A stretch of DNA of 64,000 nt from Octopus sinensis (GCF_006345805.1 NC_043001.1:3906001-3970000); one strand, 5' to 3'. Counted from the first letter of the stretch, positions 24,078 through 56,701 are shown. Translations and numbers: made by a program. The notes: a model not told the origin generated them from the letters alone.

Positions 24078-24229
24078 AAGTTGTGATGAGATTTAGGCAC
24101 AATGATGCAAAGGTCACTGGTTGGAATCGAACTCGGAACCGAACTCTTAATCACTACACCTTATGCACGTGGTTAAGAACGTGGGCTACTAACCACAAGA
24201 CTCCGAGTTCGATTCTAGGCAATAATTTC

Positions 24230-24275
<46 letters not shown>

Positions 24276-24287
24276 GTGATAATGATG

Positions 24288-24341
<54 letters not shown>

Positions 24342-24343
<2 letters not shown>

Positions 24344-26162
24344 CGGGTATAAAATGTTTGATAAAAATATAAATCATCTCGTTTACATGGATGATTTAAA
24401 GCTGTTTGCAAAAAATGATCAACAACTCAAGGGCTTACTAGCGATAGTCAAACAATTCAGTGACGACATCAGAATGCAATTCGGCCTCGATAAATGTGCA
24501 AAGGCTACCTTTATCAAAGGAAAAATGACAGAAACATCTAACGTTAACCTTGACCAACAGAATGTCATAAAAGAACTAGACCCAGCGGAGAGCTACAAGT
24601 ACCTAGGGGTAATTGAAGGGAACGGAATAAGTCATTCAGAGATGAAGGAAAGGATCAGGAGAGAATGCTATCGAAGAGTGAGAGCAATACTCAAGACAGA
24701 GCTGAATGCAAGAAACAGGATCGAAGCAATCAATGCATTAGCTATACCAGTCGTAACTTACAGTTTCAATATTGTTAACTGGTCAATTACTGAAATATGT
24801 CAGCTCGACAGAAAAATAAGGAAACTGTTAACAATGCATAGAATGCACCACCCTAAGGCAGATACAGAACGACTCTATCTGCCAAGAAAAGAGGGAGGCC
24901 GTGGTCTTTTGCAACTGGCAATAACAATGAAGATTGCTACAATTGGCCTAGACACCTACCTGAAAAACTCTGAGGACTGGATGTTAAAACTTGTCTCAAA
25001 ACATGAAAACAAGAAAGCATCATACTCAGTCACAAAACAGGCAAAGGAATATCTAAGTGAATTCCGAATACAACCAATTTCGGAATTAGAGATAGATATA
25101 CAAGAAACAAGCACAGAAAAAGCTAGGCGCATGAAAACCCGTGCCAAAACTGCGGCCTTAGATATTCTGAATAATAAATGGCAAGAAAAACTATCTATGG
25201 CAAATACCCAAAGAGAGCGAATAATGCAGATATCGACAAAGCCCTGACCCATCAATGGCTAATGGCCTCTGGCTTAAAATCTGAAACAGAGGGGTTTATC
25301 ATAGCAGCTCAAGATCAATGCCTACCAACAAGAAACTACCAGGCCAACATATTAAAGATCAGAAGCAGTCCAACGTGTCGTGTATGCAAGCAACAAAATG
25401 AAACCATTGACCATGTGGTCTCCAAGTGCAGTCTTCTAGCGCCTACAGAGTATCTCAACAGGCACGATAGAGCTGCACAATATATTCACTGGGTAATCTG
25501 TAAAAACCTGGATTTGCCCCATGAAAAAAAACTGGTGGGAACACAAACCACCCCCAGTGCTTGAAAATGACCACATCTCACTCCTCTGGAACTTCACCAT
25601 TCAAACTGACAGGAAGATAGATGCAAATAGGCCAGACATCATATTGAAAGACTTCAAACAAAGAACATGCCTCCTCATTGATATGACTGTACCAATCGAT
25701 ATAAACGTATCTGTCAAGACCTACCAAAAACTGAGCAAATATAAAGATCTTGAAATAGAAATCAGCAAAATGTGGAAGCTGAAGACTAAAACAATACCTG
25801 TTGTCATAGGTGCCCTGGGAATGATAGCAAAAGGGGCTGATAGCTACCTAACTCAGATACCAGGAAACCCAAAAATGGCAGAAGTTCAAAAGATAGTGTT
25901 CATGGGAACTGCTCATATCCTACGCAAAATACTCTCTATGTAATCTCAAGGTTTAAAACAAACATAATTTTCGGTTTAAAAAAAAAAAAAAAAAAAACTT
26001 TTTTTTTTTTTTAGACATTCATTAGTACAACATCCCCACCCCCCAAATATATGGCACACTAGGCATAACAACAACATGAACTTCCAACCCTGTTGTCTCT
26101 TGAGGTCTCTGGGTGAGACTTGGAGCCAACTTGTACAAATATAAAGCAAAAGTCAAACATAG
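24342..26162 (+). mobile_element. R4/Dong-clade non-LTR retrotransposon, family A, 5'-truncated and frameshifted
   Basis: RT motif YMDDLKLF, thumb YKYLG/GGRGL, CCHC CRVC..ETIDHVVSKC, RHD and restriction-like endonuclease RPDII..LIDMTVP..K.SKY across three frames to the stop at 25943; 3' UTR followed by (AAT)n; (AAT)n on both sides. Confidence 0.93.
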
Positions 26163-41839: not shown

Positions 41840-42620
41840 GCTATCAATCGGTTTCGCACCGGGTATCAAAATCCTACATTAGAATGCAGCAAGATTAATT
41901 AATACGGTGCGTTATCTGTGCGCCATATACAACTGTTTCTATGTTGCATCAATTGTTAAGAAGAGGTGGTGTTATATCTACATGAGCAACGTGCCTGTCT
42001 CAGGGCCGGGCCTAATTAACTCTGAAGGTGTGCCTATTAAAAACTTGACTAACCTTATTCGTACAGGGAAAATATTTATAAACAAAATGCCACCCACACT
42101 ATGTTTCTGCTTCACTATGTTTTGTCTTGGAGGAGTTAAGATCTGGCGGATAACTAAACCGATTTTTAAATCCAGTCACAGCCAGGGCCTCTTTGTCGCA
42201 CAGGAGAGCAGCGTCAAAATCTCTTTACTTGAAGATGGGTTGGGGATTTTCCTGCTGACTCCTTTCACCAGTTTTCTAACCGTTCTGATTGGATGAGGGA
42301 AAGTTTAGTTGACATCCGTCTTCTTCTCGTGTGGCCTCCTAAGGACGTAAAATCTCCCGTATTCCAAGTCTAATATCAGGGAAATACACCATCTTCAGGT
42401 TGGTTTCTATTATGACATTGAGAGCAAAGGCATTGTTGGTGTTGGTGATATACTTCTTAAGCCTGTCGAAAATGTTTCAGTATATTTCTCTCCATATTTC
42501 GAAGGTATCACCACTGTAGAATGTATGGTTATTTGAAGAGAATTTTATCGCAAGTAAATTCAGGAAAAAGTCCAAATCCTTCATTCTTCAACACTTTCAT
42601 ATGCGCCCATCGCTGTGACA
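41840..42620 (-). pseudogene. Decayed, internally deleted Penelope-clade element (RT C-terminus to endonuclease)
   Basis: Minus-strand broken frames read GLF.LNLL, a YRDDG-like remnant, LNVIIETNLKMV.F.DI, KGVSRKI...SSSKE, FDAA, EAL..TGF, RNIVW, VFNRHT and ETVVYGAQI, in PLE order. Confidence 0.7.
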
Positions 42621-42950
42621 AAGGGGCCTTCTACGACAGTTCTCCTGACGCAGGACGGCCCTTTGTTGAAAAGTAGTTTTTTTTGGCATGCCTGTGTATT
42701 CATGTATCCTCACCTCTAATATTATAGTAAGTTGTAGCGAAATTTAGGGCTTTGTACAAAAGCTCCCTTGATACAGACAGGTAAAAATGATCTAAATCAA
42801 ATCTTACTCGACGCCGACAGTCATTTCACTTTAAACCATGTTACGGTTGGTGCTGCGCTGCTAAACAACGTTCGAAGCCATCCCGGCATTTGGGGTTAGA
42901 ACAAGAGTTTGGCTTATGGTTTTTAATCGTAATAATATTCTCTTCCGTCG

Positions 42951-43061
42951 CTAGTGTTTCTCCCATACCAACTACACCTTACTGAACGTTCTATCTTAGG
43001 CCTCGTAGTTAAGGTCACCTGCCAGACTGACACAGGAGGAAGTCTGCTAGGCATTTGAGTC
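42951..43061 (-). ncRNA. Candidate decayed HDV-like ribozyme at the 5' end of an RTE-like 5' UTR fragment
   Basis: Minus strand: P1 GACUCA ... P2 CUAG .. P3/L3 gac-UUCCUCCU-gug, P1' UCAGUC, then UGG ... GGGAGAAAC-ACUAG. Several mismatches. Confidence 0.35.
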
Positions 43062-43274
43062 ATTCTTATCATCCAGGGCTAACAGAGACAAGCAACCTGA
43101 GTCTTTGTTATTTTATTTATTCTGTTTCTTCGGAACATTGTAAATTTTCTCGCGGCCCATTCTGATCAATGCTAAATATTTCATATTTAACCGGGCATAC
43201 CTGCAGCCGATTATTTCCTACTACTTTTTCAAACGGTTCCGATGATGAAAACAAATATATAAAAGTGTTTTGCA

Positions 43275-43309
<35 letters not shown>

Positions 43310-44862
43310 AATATTATTATATATATATATAGTATATATATATAGTTATCCGTAATAATGAAGGGTGATGAAATTAATTAATTTGGAAAAATTATCAATT
43401 ACACCAAGTAGTCTCGGCATGTGTAAAAGCCTCATTCGAGGAAAATTTAAGTCCTACTAAGCAATAAGGGTTTAGCAACGAGTGCCTTACCAATTACCGA
43501 ATTTTTAGAAATACAGTCAAAGGGTGATAGCTGTTTCTTCTACATAAAAAAGGGAGATCTCAGTATAAAGCAGCATTGGGAAGGCAGCACAAAACAGTAA
43601 GAGAGAATGAATTGACTGCAATCTATCATTACTTTTTTTAGTTATCCACGGCGTACGTTTCGAAATATCAAGTTTTAGGAAAGCATAAGAATTCAATATT
43701 TAAAATATTAAATAATTTATCTACCGAAACTTCGGTTTCTCTTCAGCGTAGAATACTATAATCATAAATGTATTTATATTGAATTTTGAGATACCAGAAG
43801 GCACCAACTCAACTCAGTATCAGAGCGAGCTAGAATCCGCCAAACTGGTATCACCGAATTCAATTTGTGAATGAAACGATTGTGTGGGTCAACAGCACCC
43901 TTCCCACCCGCGTGTTGTAGCCAAAACAAGATGCTGTGGTCATCTACTGAGATAAAATATAGTTATCCGTAATAATGAAGGGTGTGAAATAATTAATTGG
44001 AAAAATTATCAATTACACCAAGTAGTCTTCGGCATGTAAAAGCCTCATTCGAGGACAAATTTAAGTAATACTAAGCAATAAGGGTTTAGCAACGAGTTGC
44101 TTACCACATACCGAATTTAGAAATAGCAGTCAAAGGGTATAGCTATTTCTTCTACAAAAAAGGGACGATCTCAGTATAAAAACAGCATTTGGAAGGCAGA
44201 CACAAACAGGTAAGAGGAATGAATTGACTGCAATCTATCATACATTTTTAGTTATCCACGGACGTACGTTTCGAAATCAAGTTTTAAGGAAAGCATAAGA
44301 ATTAAATATTAAATATTAAATAATTCTATCTTACCGAAAATCTTTTCTCTTCGCGTAGAATACTATAATCATAAATGATTATATATTGAATTTTGAGATA
44401 CCAGAAGGCACCAACTCAACTCAGTATCAGAGCGAGCTAGAATCCGCAACTGGTATCACCGAATTTCATTTGTGAATGAAACGATTGTGTCAACAGCCCC
44501 TTCCCACCCGCGTGTAGCCAAAACAGATGCTGTGGTCATTACTGAGATAAAATATGGTTTTCCGTAATAATGAAGGGTGAAATTAATTAATTTGGAAAAA
44601 TTTTTCTCAATTACACCAAGTAGTCTTCGGCATGTAAAAGCCTCATTCGAGGGAAAAATTTAAGTAATACTAAGCAATAAGGGTTTAGCAACGAGTTGCC
44701 TTACCACCATACCGAATTTAGAATAGCAGTCAAAGGGTTATAGCTATTTCTTCTACAAAAAAGGAGAGATCTCAGTAAAAACAGCATTTGGAAGGCAGAC
44801 CAAACAGGTAAGAGAGAATGAATTGACTGCAATCTACATATCATTTTTTTAGTTATCCACGG

Positions 44863-44965
44863 ACGTACGTTTCGAAATAAAGTTTTAAGGAAGGGAAAGC
44901 ATAAGAATTAAATATTAAATATTAAATAATTCTATCTTACCGAAACTTCTTTTCTCTTCAGCGTA
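44863..44965 (-). ncRNA. Type I hammerhead motif in an array monomer (left arm; also ~43652-43750 and a mutated copy at ~44262-44357)
   Basis: The minus strand reads UACG-CUGAAGA-GAAA...UUUC-GAAA-CG-UA-CGU. Confidence 0.7.
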
Positions 44966-45973
44966 GAATACTATAATCATAAATGATTATATATTGAATT
45001 TTGAGATACCAGAAGGCACCAACTCAACTCAGTATCAGAGCGAGCTAGAATCCGCAACTGGTAACCGAATTCAATTTGTGAATGAACGATTGTGTCAACA
45101 GCCCCTTCCCACCCGCGTGTAGCAAAAACAAGATGCTTGGTCATCTACTGAGATAAAAATGGTTATCCGTAATAATGAAGGGTGAATGAAATTAATAAGT
45201 TGGAAAAATTATCAATTACACCAAGTAGTCTTCGGCATGTAAAAGCCTCATTCGAGGAAAATTAAGTAATACTAAGCAAAGGGGATTTAGCACGAGTGGG
45301 AACGGTGTTGGTGAGTCTGCGCCTCTGGTATCTCAAAATTCAAATCTATATAACATATGATTATAGTCATTCTACGCTGAAGAGGAAAAGAAGTTTCGGT
45401 AAGATAGAATTATTAATATTTAATATTTATTCTTATTCTTTCCTGCTTCTTAAAAAGATTTCGAAAACGTACGTCCGTGGATAACTAAAAAAATGTATGA
45501 TAGTGATTGCAGTCAATCATTCTCTCTTACCTGTTTGTGTCTGCCTTCCAAATGCTGTTTTTACTGAGATCTCCTTTTTTTGTAGAGAAAATAGCTATAC
45601 CCTTTGACTGCTATTTCTAAATTCGGTATGTGGTAAGGCAACTCGTTGCTAAACCCTTATTGCTTAGTAGATTACTTAAATTTTCCTCGAATGAGGCTTT
45701 TACATGCCGAAAGCTACTTGGTGTAATTGATAATTTTTCCAAATAATTAATTTCACCCTTCATTATTACGGATACCATATTTTATCTCAGTAGATGACCA
45801 CAGCATCTTTGTTTGGCTACACGCGGGTGGGAAGGGGCTGTTGACACAATCGTTTCATTCACAAATTGAATTCGGTGATACCAGTTGCGGATTCTAGCTC
45901 GCTCTGATACTGAGTTGAGTTGGTGCCTTCTGGGTCTCAAAATTCAATATATAATCATTTATGAATAGTATTC

Positions 45974-46071
45974 TACGCTGAAGAGAAAAGAAGTTTCGGT
46001 AAGATAGAATTTATTTATATTTAATATTTAATTCTTATGCTTTCCTTAAAACTTGATTTCGAAACGTACGT
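45974..46071 (+). ncRNA. Type I hammerhead motif in an array monomer (right arm; also 45373-45474 and a mutated copy at 46580-46676)
   Basis: UACG-CUGAAGA-[GAAA..AAGUUU..AUAGAAUU / AAUUCUUAU..AAACUU..UUUC long stem II]-GAAA-CG-UA-CGU; predicted GUA cleavage after 46068. Confidence 0.75.
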
Positions 46072-46865
46072 CCGTGGATAACTAAAAAAATGTATGATAG
46101 ATTGCAGTCAATTCATTCTCTCTTTACACCTGTTTGTGTCTGCCTTCCAAATGCCTGTTTTTACTGAGATCTCCCTTTTTGTTGTAGAAGAAATAGCTAT
46201 AACCTTTGACTGCTATTTCTAAATGCGGTAGTGGTAAGGCAACTCGTTGCTAAACCCTTATTGTCTTAGTTTACTTAAATTTTCCTCGAATGAGGCTTTT
46301 ACATGCCGAAGACTACTTGGTTGAATTGATAATTTTTCCAAATTAATTAATTTCACCCTTCATTATTAAGGATAACCATATTCTTTATCTCAGATAGATG
46401 ACCACAGCATCTTGTTTTGGCTACACGCGGGTGGGAAGGGGCTGTTGACACAATCGGTCATTCACAAATTGAATTCGGTGATACCAGTTGCGGATTCTAG
46501 CTCGCTCTGATACTGAGTTGAGTTGGTGCCTTCTGGTATCTCAAAATTCAATATCATAATATTTATGATTATAGTATTCTACGCTGGAGAGAAAAGAAGT
46601 TTTAGGTAAGATTAGAATTATGAATATTTATATTTAATTCTTATGCTTTCCTTAAAACTTGATTTCGAAACTACGTCCGTGGATAACTAAAAAAATGTAT
46701 GATAGATTGCAGTCAATTATTCTCTCTTACCTGTTTGGTCTGCCTTCCAAATGTGTTTTTACTGAGATCTCCCTTTTTTGTAGAAGAAATAGCTTATAAC
46801 CCTTGACTGCTATTTCTAAATTCGGTATGTGGTAAGGCAACTCGTTGCTAAACCCTTATTGCTTA

Positions 46866-46901
<36 letters not shown>

Positions 46902-47482
46902 GGAGATTTACTCGCATAGCAAGTGATTTGATCTGAGATCGTGTGCTGGAACGAAAACGATTGCAGCGTGGAAGGTGTTTATAAGCCATTTAAGAAAAAC
47001 ACCAAAAGCCGCTCGATTCACTTCAACATTAAGTTTAATTTGTCAAAAATTTCTTTCGTCAATAAAATCCGCGACCTGTTCACTGACAAAAATCCGTGCT
47101 GCTTCTGAGAAAGAAACAGTTAGTTCGTCATATATATGTACGTATGTATGTGTGCAGGTATGTATACACGCATGCGTGCATGTGTGTATGTATGTACGTA
47201 CATACGCCTGTGTATGTATGTATGTATATATGTATGTATGTATGCGTGTGTATATGCACGCACATACACTGTAGTGATGGATAGATGTAGACTGACCACT
47301 CATCACAATAATATCAAATTTCAACATCCCTCGCCGAAACTAGGAAGTGATTTACGACCCTCACCCCCAAAAGAAAACCCTAAAACCTATTATCAGTCAT
47401 TTATCTCTATATCACAGCACTTTTGTTTTACTATTACTTGTTTTTTTTTCCTCCCTACATCTAGTTAGTTCAGGTTAAATAT

Positions 47483-47750
47483 ATATACGTATGTATGTGT
47501 GTATGTATGTATGTATGTATGTATGTATGTATGTATGTATGTATGTATGTATGTATGTACGTATGTATGTATGTATGTATGTATGTATGTGTGTATGCAC
47601 ATACGTACGCATGTGCGTATGTATGTATACGCGCACGTATGCATGTGCCCATGTATGTGTGTGCGTACATGTACGTGCGTACGTACGTGTGTATGCCCAT
47701 ACGTAGGTATGTATGTATGTTTGTATTCATGTGCTACGTATGTATATGAG
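47483..47750. repeat. (ATGT)n and derived microsatellite
   Basis: Seen directly. Confidence 0.95.
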
Positions 47751-47907
47751 TGTCTAGGAAAATAGGCAGACGCGTCTGTGAGAGTGTGTACATGTGTATG
47801 TGCATTTGAACGTATGTCCGTGTATTGGTATGTGTCCGTCCAATTTGTGTACATGACTTACTTTGTTGAAGGTTGTATACGTACACACATATATGTTTGT
47901 ATAGACG

Positions 47908-47947
<40 letters not shown>

Positions 47948-48311
47948 ATATATCGGTGTGGGTGTGTGGTTGTTCCTCTCATCACCGTCTAACTGTGAAT
48001 GGATACAACGTTTAGGTGCAACTGTGCACATATAACCATATCCATATACGCAAGTACACACAATCGTATAGACACACTCATAAATATACATATAATCTTA
48101 AAATACTCGTATATTCTAATCCACATGTACATACATATGTCCTATTATACACATACACACACACACACACAAGCATACAGACACAAACACACACGCATAA
48201 ACATACATACGCACACCCACACGCACATACATGCAAAATACGACACAGTATTTTATATTTATATATGCATAAACGCATACATATACAATACATCCATACA
48301 TGATCATATGA

Positions 48312-48345
<34 letters not shown>

Positions 48346-48436
48346 CAATTAAGGACAACTACTTAATAAGGAAAACTTAACAAGAAATTGTCAGGTAGAT
48401 AGCGTGGAAAATAATTATTTCTTATTGAACATATTA

Positions 48437-48582
48437 ATTTATATATAGAGGGCATTATACATACATGCCAGAAGGCATTATACATACAAGCCACACGCTA
48501 AGAGGGACAATTAGTCATTTCTACCAAAAATATTACTAATCCCACCGAATGCAATCTGAATGCATGTATGTATAATGCCCTC

Positions 48583-49176: not shown

Positions 49177-52100
49177 ACACACAAGGGGCTAAACACAGAG
49201 GTGACAAACAGGGACAAAAGAAGCCACAAAAGAAGCTGGATACTCACCCAAACCCGCCCAAACAGGAGTACCACCACCCAAACAAACCCTGTGGATAAAT
49301 AACATCCAAAGCAAAATAAAAAAAATTAGAAAAGACCAGTCGATTCTTAATGAATTCAGCAAACAATCAACGCTACTGAGCAATAAAAAGAGAACAAAAA
49401 TACTCCGCAAATATAACATCACAGAGAAAGATTTGCCTGAAATAAAAGAAAAGCTGAAGCAAGATATCCTTGCCAAAGCACAAAGGATCCGCCGGTACAA
49501 GAAACGCCAACGCTTCTTTGAAGAAAACAAAAAGTTCAACTCTTACCCCAAAACGTTCTACCAAGAACTGGGAAAAAATAAAATAGAAGTCACTGCAGCA
49601 CCAACGGCAGAAGAATTGGAAGAATTCTGGGGAGAAATATGGTCGGCGAACGAACCACCAAAAAAAAGGAGTATCAGAATAACAAACTCGGCATCTGAAC
49701 AACTTTGGACCCCCATAACAACTGAAGAGGTCACCCAGGCACTGCAAAAACTAAGCAACTGGAAGGCACCTGGGCATGACAAGATCCCCAACTTCTGTTG
49801 AAATATATCTACAGGAATGCACAAAAAGCTGGCTGAAAACTTTAACAACGTACTAGCAGAGCCAGAGACAATGCCTGAATGGCTCACGAAGGGGAAAACC
49901 ATCTTAATTCCCAAATCAAATGAAACAGCAAAACCAGAAAACTACAGACCAATAACCTGCCTCCCTAATATGTTCAAGGCATTTACTGCAGTGATATCAC
50001 AAAGACTGAACAAGCACCTGGGCGAAAACAAACTGTTCCCAGAAGAGCAGAAGGGATGCCGCAAAGGCTCATATGGCCGTAAAGATCAACTAATGATTAA
50101 TAAAGCCATAACTGAAGACAGCCACAGAAAGAAGAAAGGCCTCAGTATGGCCTGGATTGACTACAAAAAGGCGTTTGATAGCATCCCCCACACATGGATC
50201 CTCGAAACACTAGCCATTAACAAAGTAGCACCAACAATCATAAAATTCATAGAGCACTCTATGAATAAATGGCAAACAGTCCTACACCTCCAAACAAAAG
50301 AGGGACTCATGAAAACCAAAGACATCCCCATTAGCAGAGGAATATTCTCGGGAGACACGCTTTCTCCACTCCTTTTCTGCTTGGCACTGTCACCTCTATC
50401 TGATATGCTAAATAGAACTGGATGCGGATATAAATGTTACGGCAAAACGATCAGCCACCTTTTATATATGGATGACCTAAAACTATACGCTGCAAATGAC
50501 AAACAGCTGGAAACACTATTAAAGATAGTTCATGGATTTACCAAAGAAATAGATATGAAATTTGGATTAGAAAAATGCGCCAAAGTAACCCTGAAAAGAG
50601 GAAAACTAGTTAAGAGTAACAACATCACACTAGATAAAACCAATGAAATAAAAGAATTAGACCAAAGCCAAACTTACAAATACTTAGGAATCCATGAACT
50701 AGATAAGACATAACACACACAAATGAAAGAGAAAATAAAAAAAGAATATTATAGACGAGTTAGATCAATACTAAACACAGAGCTCAATGCTAAAAACAAG
50801 ATAATAGGTATCAACACTTTAGCTGTCCCAGTTATAAGTTACAGCTACAATATCCTTAACTGGACACGAAATGAACTGACCAAAATAGATAGGAAAACAA
50901 GAAAAATAATGACAGGATCTAGGATGCATCACCCAAAATCTGACATAGAAAGACTATATATACAAAGCATAGAAGGTGGTAGAGGCCTTATACAGCTGGA
51001 AAACTACTATAAAATAACCACCATAGGACTGCAAAAATATCTACTTCAGAAGGAAGGAAAACTGATCCAGATAGCGGCAAAACACGAGCAAAACAAAAAA
51101 ACTGTTCTCAGTATTTAAGGAAGCTGACAAATACAAACAAGAAATCATACCACCCAATAAACGTGAAGAAGAAGAAGATGAAGAAACAACAAAAGCTATA
51201 AAACAAATGAAATCCAAACTAAAAATAGAACAGCAACGAACCATGACAAAACGATGGCAAGAAAAGCCCCTTCATGGTAAATACTGCACTAAACTAAACG
51301 CAAAAGAAATAGACAAAGAAAAATCCCAGCAATGGTTGAGAAGCTCAGGACTCAAAGCAGGAACAGAGGGATTTTTAATTGCAGCACAAGACCAAAGCCT
51401 CCCCACCAGAAATTACCAAAAACATGTAATGAAAAGAAATATTACAAGTAACTGCAGAATATGTGGAGATGGACAAGAAACAATAAATCATATTATCTCT
51501 AGCTGCCCAGTCCTTGGCTAAGAAGGAATATATTCACAGACATGACAGAGTTGGAACCTACATACATTGGAAGCTATGCCAACATTATGGAATAACAACA
51601 GAAAAAAGATGGTATAGGCACACACCAGAAAAGGTCACAGAAAACGAGAAAGCAACCATACTCTGGGATATGCCGATACACACAGATAGAGAAATTAAGG
51701 CCAACAGACCAGATATAGTTGTCAGAGATCATGAAGAAAAAAAATGCTTTCTAATTGATGTATCAATACCGGCTGATGACAACGTGTCTCTAAAAGAAAT
51801 GGAGAAACTCTCAAAATACAAAGACCTGGAAATAGAGGTAATTAGAATGTGGAATCTGAAAACAGAAACAATTCCTATCATAGTAGGTGCATGAGGCATG
51901 ATAAAAAATATTCAGACAAATACATAACAAAAACACCAGGACTTACAAACACATATAACATACAGAAAATTGCACGACTAGGCACTGCACACATCCTACG
52001 CAGAACACTTTCCATACAATAACCATCAGAGCATCACAACAAATCACAGCACATACCCAAAGCACACAGAGCTGTGCTCGGTAGTGAAGTGAAAGCACGC

Positions 52101-55355: not shown

Positions 55356-56701
55356 GTGAGGAAGGGAGGAGAGATGGACAATGGACAAAGTTGCGCACCG
55401 GAAGCGATAAAAGGAATGAGTGCTAGAACCCTGGAGGTGGAGGAGGTGAAAATTGATGCGGGAAGGAGGAGGAAAGGGAGAAAATTTGTAAAAAAGAAGG
55501 GAGTTAGTCTAGGGCTGATTCCCGCAGAAGAACGGATGAAAAGCATAGCGAAGAGAACGGTAGTATACAGAATGTTGTCTCTGTCCTCGAACAAGATAGA
55601 GTTCACTCCAACAGAAAAAATAGAGGAATGTCTCGAAAATGTTTAAAAAATTGACCACATTCTATGCACGTGGAAAAAAGTATGGCTCAGTGGAAGTAAA
55701 GTTGGCAACGAAGAAGATGCCATAAACCACTCCACGGACCCGTTACGGACAACGACATGGATACTACTTCCGACGTACTGAGGAAAACGAGTTGCCAGTG
55801 TCAGAGATGGAAGAGTACCCCTCGAAATCGATGAAGAATGGCTGGTAGCTGCCATAATGCACGATATGAAAGATGGGGTAGAGATCTTCAAGATAACGAG
55901 GACCCCAAAGGCCAATTGGTAGGGATATAGCCTTGAAGTGACCATGCATGTATCTTTGGAAGTTTTGCATGTTATAACGGAGGAAGTAGTATTTCCGGAA
56001 GACGCTGGACTTCGAAAGCAGTAGAGGGAGGACCACCAACATGCTTCTTATGCGGCAGGGGAGGGCACATAAAGGCGGGATGTCCCGAGAAGGAAGGCGA
56101 GGAGGAGAGGAGAAGTGAAGAAAGTGATACCTGGGAGGTAGTAACAATAAAGGAGACACATAGAGTGGAGGAACCCTTCACAGTAGTAAACAGGAGGAAG
56201 AGAAAGGAACGGGTGAATTCTCCCTCAGACTGTAAAAAAAGACTAAAAGAGATTGTGACGAAAGAAAATAGAAATAGGTGTGAAGCACCAACAGAAGCAG
56301 TAGTGAAAGAAGGCTCACTGGAAAAAGCAGCATTACAACAGGGAGAAAGAGGAAGTGTTTATAAAATTGGTTGTGATGTTTCTGCACACCCGAACACATC
56401 AGGACGGGAGCCGAAGCAAGCAGAAGTGAAAAGGAAGAGATATAAGTGGCATTTGGTCAGGTATTCCAAAAGTAAAGAAATAGAGAAAACGATTGTAAAA
56501 TAGAAATCGGTAATAAGAGTAAAGCAGCCGCCAGGAGAATACCTGGAATGCACTAAAGGAATAGTCATAGATAAAGAGGGATTTTTGAAACTGAGAGAGA
56601 TGTATGGACTTTTCATAGAGACGCTGGGGGTTGAAGTCGAGTTTGACGAGCTCCTGCCGGTCGTGGAATTAGAAGATTTGAAACCCTTTATGAACATTTA
56701 A
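55356..56701 (+). pseudogene. gag/ORF1-like pseudogene with a CCHC zinc knuckle, followed by an A-rich tract
   Basis: 56042-56083 translates CFLCGRGGHIKAGC (C-X2-C-X4-H-X4-C), preceded by VEGGPPT as in L1/Tx1-type ORF1; followed by a charged low-complexity region; several stops and frameshifts; A-rich tract 56726-56813; no RT or endonuclease is visible. Confidence 0.75.

Follow-up and report, generated by a model that had tools for sequence, protein, structure and literature searches.

The array at positions 43,343–46,869 of the window (the whole 64,000-nucleotide stretch of Octopus sinensis DNA that we analysed, GCF_006345805.1 NC_043001.1:3906001-3970000) is an ordinary, poorly polished member of a retrozyme family that is young, dispersed and without protein. 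We consider it probable that it represents one insertion of this non-coding 600-nt retrozyme, a non-autonomous Penelope-like element (PLE), and that it was made by twin priming, a borrowed PLE enzyme cutting both strands of a TA repeat and using both cut ends to copy one probably circular RNA. The class, non-LTR retrozymes, is already known: tandem repeats with type I hammerheads, expressed as circles and thought to depend on PLEs (Cervera and de la Pena, 2020, PMC7229834). What this family adds to the class is chiefly a two-site rule for the ends of insertions, established here by counts; its longer unit, the long stem II of its ribozyme and a tail of 100 nt are also new. The reading is based on what the data show: units repeat in tandem within a family scattered through the genome, the arms stand head to head, the targets are (TA)n, the outer ends are fixed at two sites, the hammerhead covaries, and the fold around both ends is conserved. 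An initial annotation, made from the window sequence, had proposed a retrozyme with PLE-type mobilisation that was inserted by two-ended priming into a TA tract; family-wide data support all three points.

We number the unit from q1, the first base after the predicted cleavage site, on a natural 600-nt reference copy in locus L034. BLAST of one unit against the window returns the array as seven pieces, which make up an inverted arm of ~3.2 units (minus strand, ~43343-43345 to 45297) and a direct arm of ~2.6 units (plus strand, 45312–46869), in good agreement with the ~3.2 tandem and ~2.5 inverted copies originally described. The inverted arm adjoins a left (TA)n target tract at 43275–43344 with its outer 3′ end at q300-305, the long or ‘tailed’ start site, and has its inner end at ~q166; the direct arm has its outer 3′ end at q195, the short start site, where TAT is common with the target, and is followed by the right (TA)n tract at 46870–46900. 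Both arms therefore do end outward in (TA)n at different phases, as had been noted. They are 88–93% identical to each other, the long-site arm measuring 1.96 kb and the short-site arm 1.55 kb, and meet as two 5′-truncated copies in a head-to-head junction at 45298–45311, where q166 is joined to ~q441-454 in noisy sequence. A conserved folded domain of three helices, framing both start sites, lies at 45571–45784 on the plus strand. The unit has ~35% GC and no protein-coding capacity, the longest stop-free frame of a unit dimer being 58 aa, which bears out the earlier statement that the array lacks an ORF; an ORF scan of the fetched arrays likewise found no PLE ORF in the unit or joined to any array examined. 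The ~605 bp monomer proposed earlier is indeed a tandem monomer, its length being 600 nt, or 607 in one variant. It was also said to be longer than the known retrozyme units, which holds against the 150–450 bp given for invertebrates (PMC7229834) but not against the 51–972 bp given by Li et al. (2026, bioRxiv 10.64898/2026.07.22.740005), who link retrozymes to pLTRs. Four of the 170 near-full units are those of the window, 597–611 nt long and with 11–27 indels apiece; the remaining 166 have a median of 2. The internal divergence of the array (5–10%, mainly private 1-nt indels) is probably assembly or polishing noise in a young family, not age. The copies singled out at first as best are those in which apparent assembly errors are fewest. 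Elsewhere in the window, a weak covariance-model match at 48326–48535 (minus strand, 28 bits, E 1e-4), between two TA tracts, is probably another element or chance, and 24219–25247, 49205–50713 and 55937–56503 contain, as judged by translation, fragments of non-LTR retrotransposon reverse transcriptase and of a zinc-knuckle-like ORF.

The initial annotation had suggested a genome search for further arrays and their flanks, and in the 2.72 Gb searched we find hundreds of dispersed loci with the same two ends. There are 246 matches to the unit in the 39 scored of 983 candidates; the 3′ half of the ribozyme has 1148 exact copies and the q195-TA junction 436, with 0 for the reversed-pattern controls of each, and the long-end pattern has 467 matches on the plus strand (those on the minus strand are multiply counted). 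Searches with diverged neighbours revealed sister families homologous over the whole unit: A′ (596 nt, 2190 candidates, loci L106-L135), B (~555 nt, 947 candidates, loci L100 and L070-L099) and C (~560 nt, 1883 candidates, loci L151 and L208-L227). The families are ~65–80% alike, retain the hammerhead core and, in A′, B and C, show the same fold and the same end rule as family A. Family B is very young, with many 100% identical copies and arrays of 14 or more units. These data bear on the possibility, named in the initial annotation as a refutation, that the array is an assembly artefact. An assembly fold-back, or else a satellite at the DNA level, with a likeness to a hammerhead that is due to chance would fit three observations: errors abound in the window copy, assembly of inverted repeats is difficult, and an Rfam search of 42000–48000 (E ≤ 10) gives 72 matches with no hammerhead among them. 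Against this, hundreds of loci scattered through the genome have these same ends; the flanks are not alike and the arms finish at different phases, which is not what a read fold-back gives; end junctions recur in independent short contigs; and the hammerhead stems covary. We regard both the artefact and an origin as a DNA satellite as largely refuted, and together as very improbable.

Each unit carries one predicted type I hammerhead. The cleanest lies at 45972–46078 on the plus strand, with stem I formed by 45972–45977 and 46073–46078, CUGAAGA at 45978–45984, stem II at 45985–46060, GAAA at 46061–46064, and stem III with its loop extending to 46071. A second, at 44856–44965 on the minus strand, has an intact core as assembled, and the remaining four copies in the array have apparent errors inside or beside the core. 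The motif recognised initially, CUGAAGA...GAAA with a hairpin closed by GAAA/UUUC, is thus present, its spacer being 76 nt in clean copies. An alignment of 15 hammerheads from families A, A′, B and C places the pairing in a new register, with a stem I of 6 bp (UCUACG/CGUGGA) and a stem III of 2 bp (AC/GU) with a GUAC loop. In this register, taken over stem I, the base and upper part of stem II, and stem III, 94.5% of cells are paired and double changes occur in 9 of 16 pairs; slid controls are at most 46% paired, and none of 500 shuffles reaches the score, which is not a probability, as the sequences represent about four independent lineages. The predicted cut, supported by this covariation, is GUC|CGUGGA, after C46072 (46072|46073). 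The register of the GUA|CGU cut proposed earlier is broken at one of its three pairs in 7 of the 15 sequences and shows no double changes, and the ~3 contiguous base pairs assigned to stem I give way to 6 bp across the four families. A strict need for dimeric cleavage had been deduced from an ACGU stem III; this is not a necessary conclusion, as a tetraloop closes the 2 bp of stem III, and family C has a stem III of 3 bp. Palindromic stem III is known in animal hammerheads (PMC3088659). The core, on whose conservation across copies the initial annotation had made its case depend, is invariant in 15/15 aligned sequences (CUGANGA / GAAA / UH), with N7 free to vary (A/C/G/U) and H17 being C or U, and covariation is seen in stems I and II. 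The predicted minimum lies 1.1 kcal/mol below the active fold.

Is the long stem II a peculiarity of this family? Its length of 76 nt stands as claimed, and the length alone is not unique because unrelated hammerheads in the fetched loci carry stems II of 57–64 nt. Across the families stem II shares a core of a base stem, a 3×3 internal loop and a 4-bp stem; in B and C a short loop caps it, for a total of 25–31 nt, and in A′ and A an AU-rich hairpin brings it to 60 nt and to 76 or 83 nt, respectively. The conserved 3×3 loop (AAU/UAA; AGA/UGA in A) is a candidate for the tertiary contact between loops 1 and 2 that fast cleavage calls for. A short-stem-II version with family-A flanks has 0 matches. 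Hammerheads with long stems II (57–76 nt) are common in this genome and are missed by Rfam and by short-spacer descriptors. Further examples are L091:2282-2385 (57 nt), L101:8900-9004 (58), L072:2433-2547 (64) and L181:2607-2692 (39), in which stem III is mostly palindromic; that of L101 matches the 3′ region of a PLE fragment in L051. A splice-donor-like G|GUAAG opens the apical extension of stem II (q525-531, window 45997–46003) and is kept in A, A′ and an intermediate variant, with CAG|GUAAGA in many A′ copies (e.g. L107:1514-1620 and L212:3049-3156). We considered the long stem II as an intron whose removal restores a minimal ribozyme, and rejected it: the G|GUAAG start is there, but AG is missing at the matching 3′ end. 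No spliced joint at stem II was seen in eight runs, all of them assembled contigs, which do not show start, end, strand or circularity and look the same for a circle and a multimer. One contig of run X11 departs from the unit at q524 into 174 other bases, which have 0 exact matches in the genome.

The two-site rule rests on two samples. The first, 39 best-scoring clusters and hence biased to long young arrays, contains 29 two-armed insertions, or 28 after removal of one tandem duplicate, and 12 one-armed ones. All two-armed insertions are head-to-head with 3′ ends outward in (TA)n, and 26 of the 28 independent ones have one end at q190-204 (short) and one at q290-310 (long; binomial p 1.5e-6), the exceptions being one insertion with two short ends (L046) and one with a long and an odd end. 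The single arms all end short (12/12). The second sample comprises 58 loci on contig C1 chosen by end motif, so that one end is fixed by design: 14 were found via the short end, and the other 44 come from the 48 listed loci that have a long end and lie within the first 128 Mb. L240 has an additional arm, separate from the first, and L278 an 83% fragment; neither was counted. Here 43 insertions are two-armed (40 long plus short, 3 with one end odd, gapped or truncated on retrieval) and 15 one-armed (10 short, 5 long); when seeded by the long end, the partner is short in 37/39 and long in none. Both sites are starts, because each also forms the 3′ end of single arms (12 + 10 short, 5 long). The q195 end is identical to the nucleotide in one-arm and two-arm insertions, families A′, B and C end at two homologous sites, and both TA junctions are also found in contigs from other studies and under other organism labels. 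The tail, ~100–110 nt, is present on one end only. Target-site duplications are not readable inside (TA)n. The PLE insertion signature is present: an inverted 5′-truncated copy, a one-sided tail and a microsatellite target.

The inner ends are informative about how the two arms are related. In short insertions they lie within 15 nt of each other in 20/27 cases, often at q70-110 (permutation mean 5.9; 0/20000 reach 20), and in long insertions in only 2/38. In the long arrays the arm lengths are independent (Spearman 0.14), the short-site arm being longer in 12/38 and shorter in 26/38. Overlaps between the arms at the junction are mainly 0–6 nt, and where both arms contain full units, as in 8 arrays other than that of the window, the two arms carry the same common variants. 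Twin priming on one RNA is the simplest reading, because both sites start, each is used at most once per insertion and short arms stop together. The inverted arm could alternatively arise by fold-back self-priming of one cDNA, with no second primer, as the palindromic junctions of Penelope have been interpreted (Arkhipova et al., 2013, PMC3846280). The junctions are near-palindromic in those 20 of 27 short insertions, many of them in the self-complementary q70-110 hairpin, and the long-site arm is more often the longer one, as fold-back would have it. A fold-back copy cannot outgrow its template, yet the short-site arm does so in 12 of the 38; a cDNA started at q195 would be without q196-300, so that no tail would result in sub-unit insertions; and fold-back does not account for the nucleotide-exact q195 of both single-arm and two-arm insertions. 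Since the pairing of ends, the co-stopping of short arms, the otherwise independent lengths and the shared variants all favour twin priming, we consider fold-back unlikely. L1-type twin priming on a linear RNA, in which the inner end abuts the outer end of the other arm, was rejected, as the inner ends of short arms are scattered.

As for the template, the uncorrelated inner ends of long arrays (2/38) are explained equally well by two separate RNAs from one source locus. Twin priming could then have used an uncut linear multimer or two RNAs from one source array, with the hammerhead a passenger or serving another step; this we view as a lesser possibility. Hammerhead mutants have no effect on insertion by the anole PLE (PMC11167929), and seamless junctions and shared variants are to be expected equally in this case. 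Junctions across the cut site are seamless in 260/272; 4/272 differ by ≥3 nt, against 0–1 in four control windows, which is a weak sign of scars, and the number of inner ends at the cut site (5/70 within q592-q9, ~2 expected) does not amount to significant enrichment. Some variants are repeated through one array only (8/8 units in L064, 5/5 in L050, 10/10 in L054), and these need a monomer copied repeatedly at some stage, which argues against a plain linear template, as does the retention of the core across families ~65–80% alike; related retrozymes, moreover, make abundant circles in coral, mussel and axolotl (PMC7229834). Counting against our own reading, with its circular RNA, are the failure of 8/9 predicted retrozyme dimers to cleave (bioRxiv 10.64898/2026.07.22.740005), insertion by the anole PLE without hammerhead activity, and the in vitro finding that start sites are the same for both strands and priming used no homology; counting for it, a PLE protein studied in vitro was seen to cut both strands, to extend both, and to begin at two sites inside the RNA (both PMC11167929). 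A circular template for PLE has been proposed before (PMC4209133).

A few individual arrays deserve mention. L064:1810-7878 (C1:18220100-18226180) has a family-B inverted arm followed by B switching to nine family-A units, which end at q195 in (TA)n; this chimera suggests that families A and B share one enzyme, with template switching possible. In L037:2906-7607 two variants alternate irregularly among seven units, which may reflect mixed alleles, polishing or a non-monomeric template. On L037:5315-5914, runs X2 and X3 show A>G plus T>C at 44/61 and 35/50 difference places, compared with 2/14 and 1/18 in runs X15 and X16; the skew resembles A-to-I editing of dsRNA from inverted arms, the RNA nature of these runs being a guess, with none of the 21 runs listed registered as RNA, and their organism label another one.

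Folding predictions are consistent with a small structured template. As a circle in the ribozyme sense the unit folds well below 40 shuffles each (z −4.9 for A, −5.2 for A′, −3.3 for B), while the antisense unit folds near shuffle level, so the unit RNA is predicted to be highly self-paired as a circle. A three-helix domain at q110-285 is common to seven copies from four families, with double changes in 6/48 pairs; q195 sits in a single-stranded loop of this domain and q290-305 just 3′ of its last hairpin. We can then envisage the preferred mechanism, twin priming on one circle, as follows. The hammerhead would cut read-through transcripts at GUC|C, and the resulting 600-nt monomers would be closed into circles by ligation. 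The folded domain would be bound by a PLE RT/GIY-YIG protein that is probably dimeric, one target end priming in the loop at q195 through UAU pairing and the other at q290-305, and both RTs would run 5′-ward on the same RNA for anything from part of a lap to ten or more laps. In short insertions the trailing RT would stop where the leading one had stalled, often at the q70-110 stem. The cDNA ends would be joined via 0–6 nt of microhomology, leaving both 3′ ends outward with a ~100–110 nt tail on one, and extension of a single primer would give a single arm.

Which enzyme could be borrowed? PLEs are abundant in the same genome, one family alone accounting for 22396 endonuclease candidates and having an intact 708-aa ORF (L167:4464-6587, minus strand; unit ~2.6 kb, family loci L166-L177). 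Its RWK, DKT, CxCx5C, CxxC and CxH motifs define the Hydra clade (Craig et al., 2021, PMC8557442) and so place it there; a Pfam search did not recognise the protein, and its class rests on these motifs. Hydra-clade PLEs target (TA)n (PMC8557442), as does this one, and in 8/8 of its two-armed copies a short end is paired with a ~70-nt tailed end. In its own hammerhead-like motif CUGANGA is replaced by CCGAAGA. By eye, the stretch immediately following the short site is alike in this element and family A: both have GTAT, then TAAATTT and a hairpin CCTC...GAGG. A Neptune-like family (labelled so from its motifs; L184-L207) has GIY-YIG matches, ORFs of up to 780–880 aa and long repeat-rich 3′ regions ending in (TA)n. 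Neither the Hydra-type nor the Neptune-like loci show similarity to the unit by BLAST or covariance model, and no autonomous PLE with either kind of likeness was found in ~70 PLE loci of a few families, out of thousands of PLE candidates in the genome; searches of PLE loci for the unit gave only neighbouring, independent retrozyme insertions. As the ~70 loci lack homology to the unit, the Hydra-type PLE as partner is a guess. In Xenopus, homology to an autonomous-PLE pLTR was found for 24/57 retrozyme families.

These results bear on two older questions: how PLEs come to insert in tandem and inverted form with a one-sided tail, which PMC8557442 calls undefined, and how retrozyme circles lead to genomic arrays, a connection that PMC7229834 treats as hypothetical. 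The family supplies hundreds of near-identical insertions under a sharp rule, and a small folded RNA with both starts mapped. The target is simple and the genome also encodes an intact candidate enzyme, so that direct tests of twin priming and of rolling-circle copying become possible. More tentatively, and with somewhat less than even confidence, we suggest that there is a superfamily of 550–600-nt ribozyme circles (at least four families, thousands of loci), in which a conserved telomerase-RNA-like domain would provide a dimeric PLE enzyme with two template sites, one per subunit; each subunit would prime from one strand of a cut TA repeat, and both would travel round one and the same circle. 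If true, this single mechanism would account for three features of PLEs, namely tandem copies, an inverted 5′ copy and a tail on one side, and the long stem II would hide the ribozymes of the superfamily from standard searches. Searches of the openly accessible literature, several supplements apart, found neither a cephalopod retrozyme nor an analysis of twin priming in PLEs.

In comparison with metazoan non-LTR retrozymes, the octopus family is alike in its non-coding, GC-poor head-to-tail units, each with a single type I hammerhead, in the presence of PLEs elsewhere in the genome, in a predicted circle that is strongly self-paired yet leaves the ribozyme able to fold, and in a 2-bp stem III with a palindromic tetraloop. 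It differs in the 600-nt unit (~170–400 nt in invertebrate examples), in the 76-nt stem II, in having no homologous pLTR in the ~70 PLE loci, and in its mostly two-armed inverted insertions with fixed (TA)n ends, the word ‘inverted’ occurring 0 times in the text of PMC7229834. With PLE pLTR insertions (PMC8557442, PMC3846280) it has in common the head-to-head inverted 5′-truncated copy, the one-sided tail, (TA)n targets and a hammerhead 5′ of the 3′ ends; tandem and inverted insertions with a 30–40-bp tail at one end are established there (PMC8557442), whereas here there is no ORF, the tail is ~100–110 nt, and both arms can be multimers of a unit-length RNA. The Poseidon PLE of Anolis (PAc) in vitro (Frangieh et al., 2024, PMC11167929) likewise has two internal starts spaced by the tail, an AT-rich target and extension of both strands; in our family, by contrast, the sites are anti-correlated within each insertion, with a spacing of ~100 nt, and TAT at the first is also found in the target. 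Finally, the Hydra-clade PLEs (Craig et al., 2021) resemble it in (TA)n targeting, and their abundant intact member in this genome shows the same end rule; the terminal region of that member has no BLAST or covariance-model similarity to the unit.
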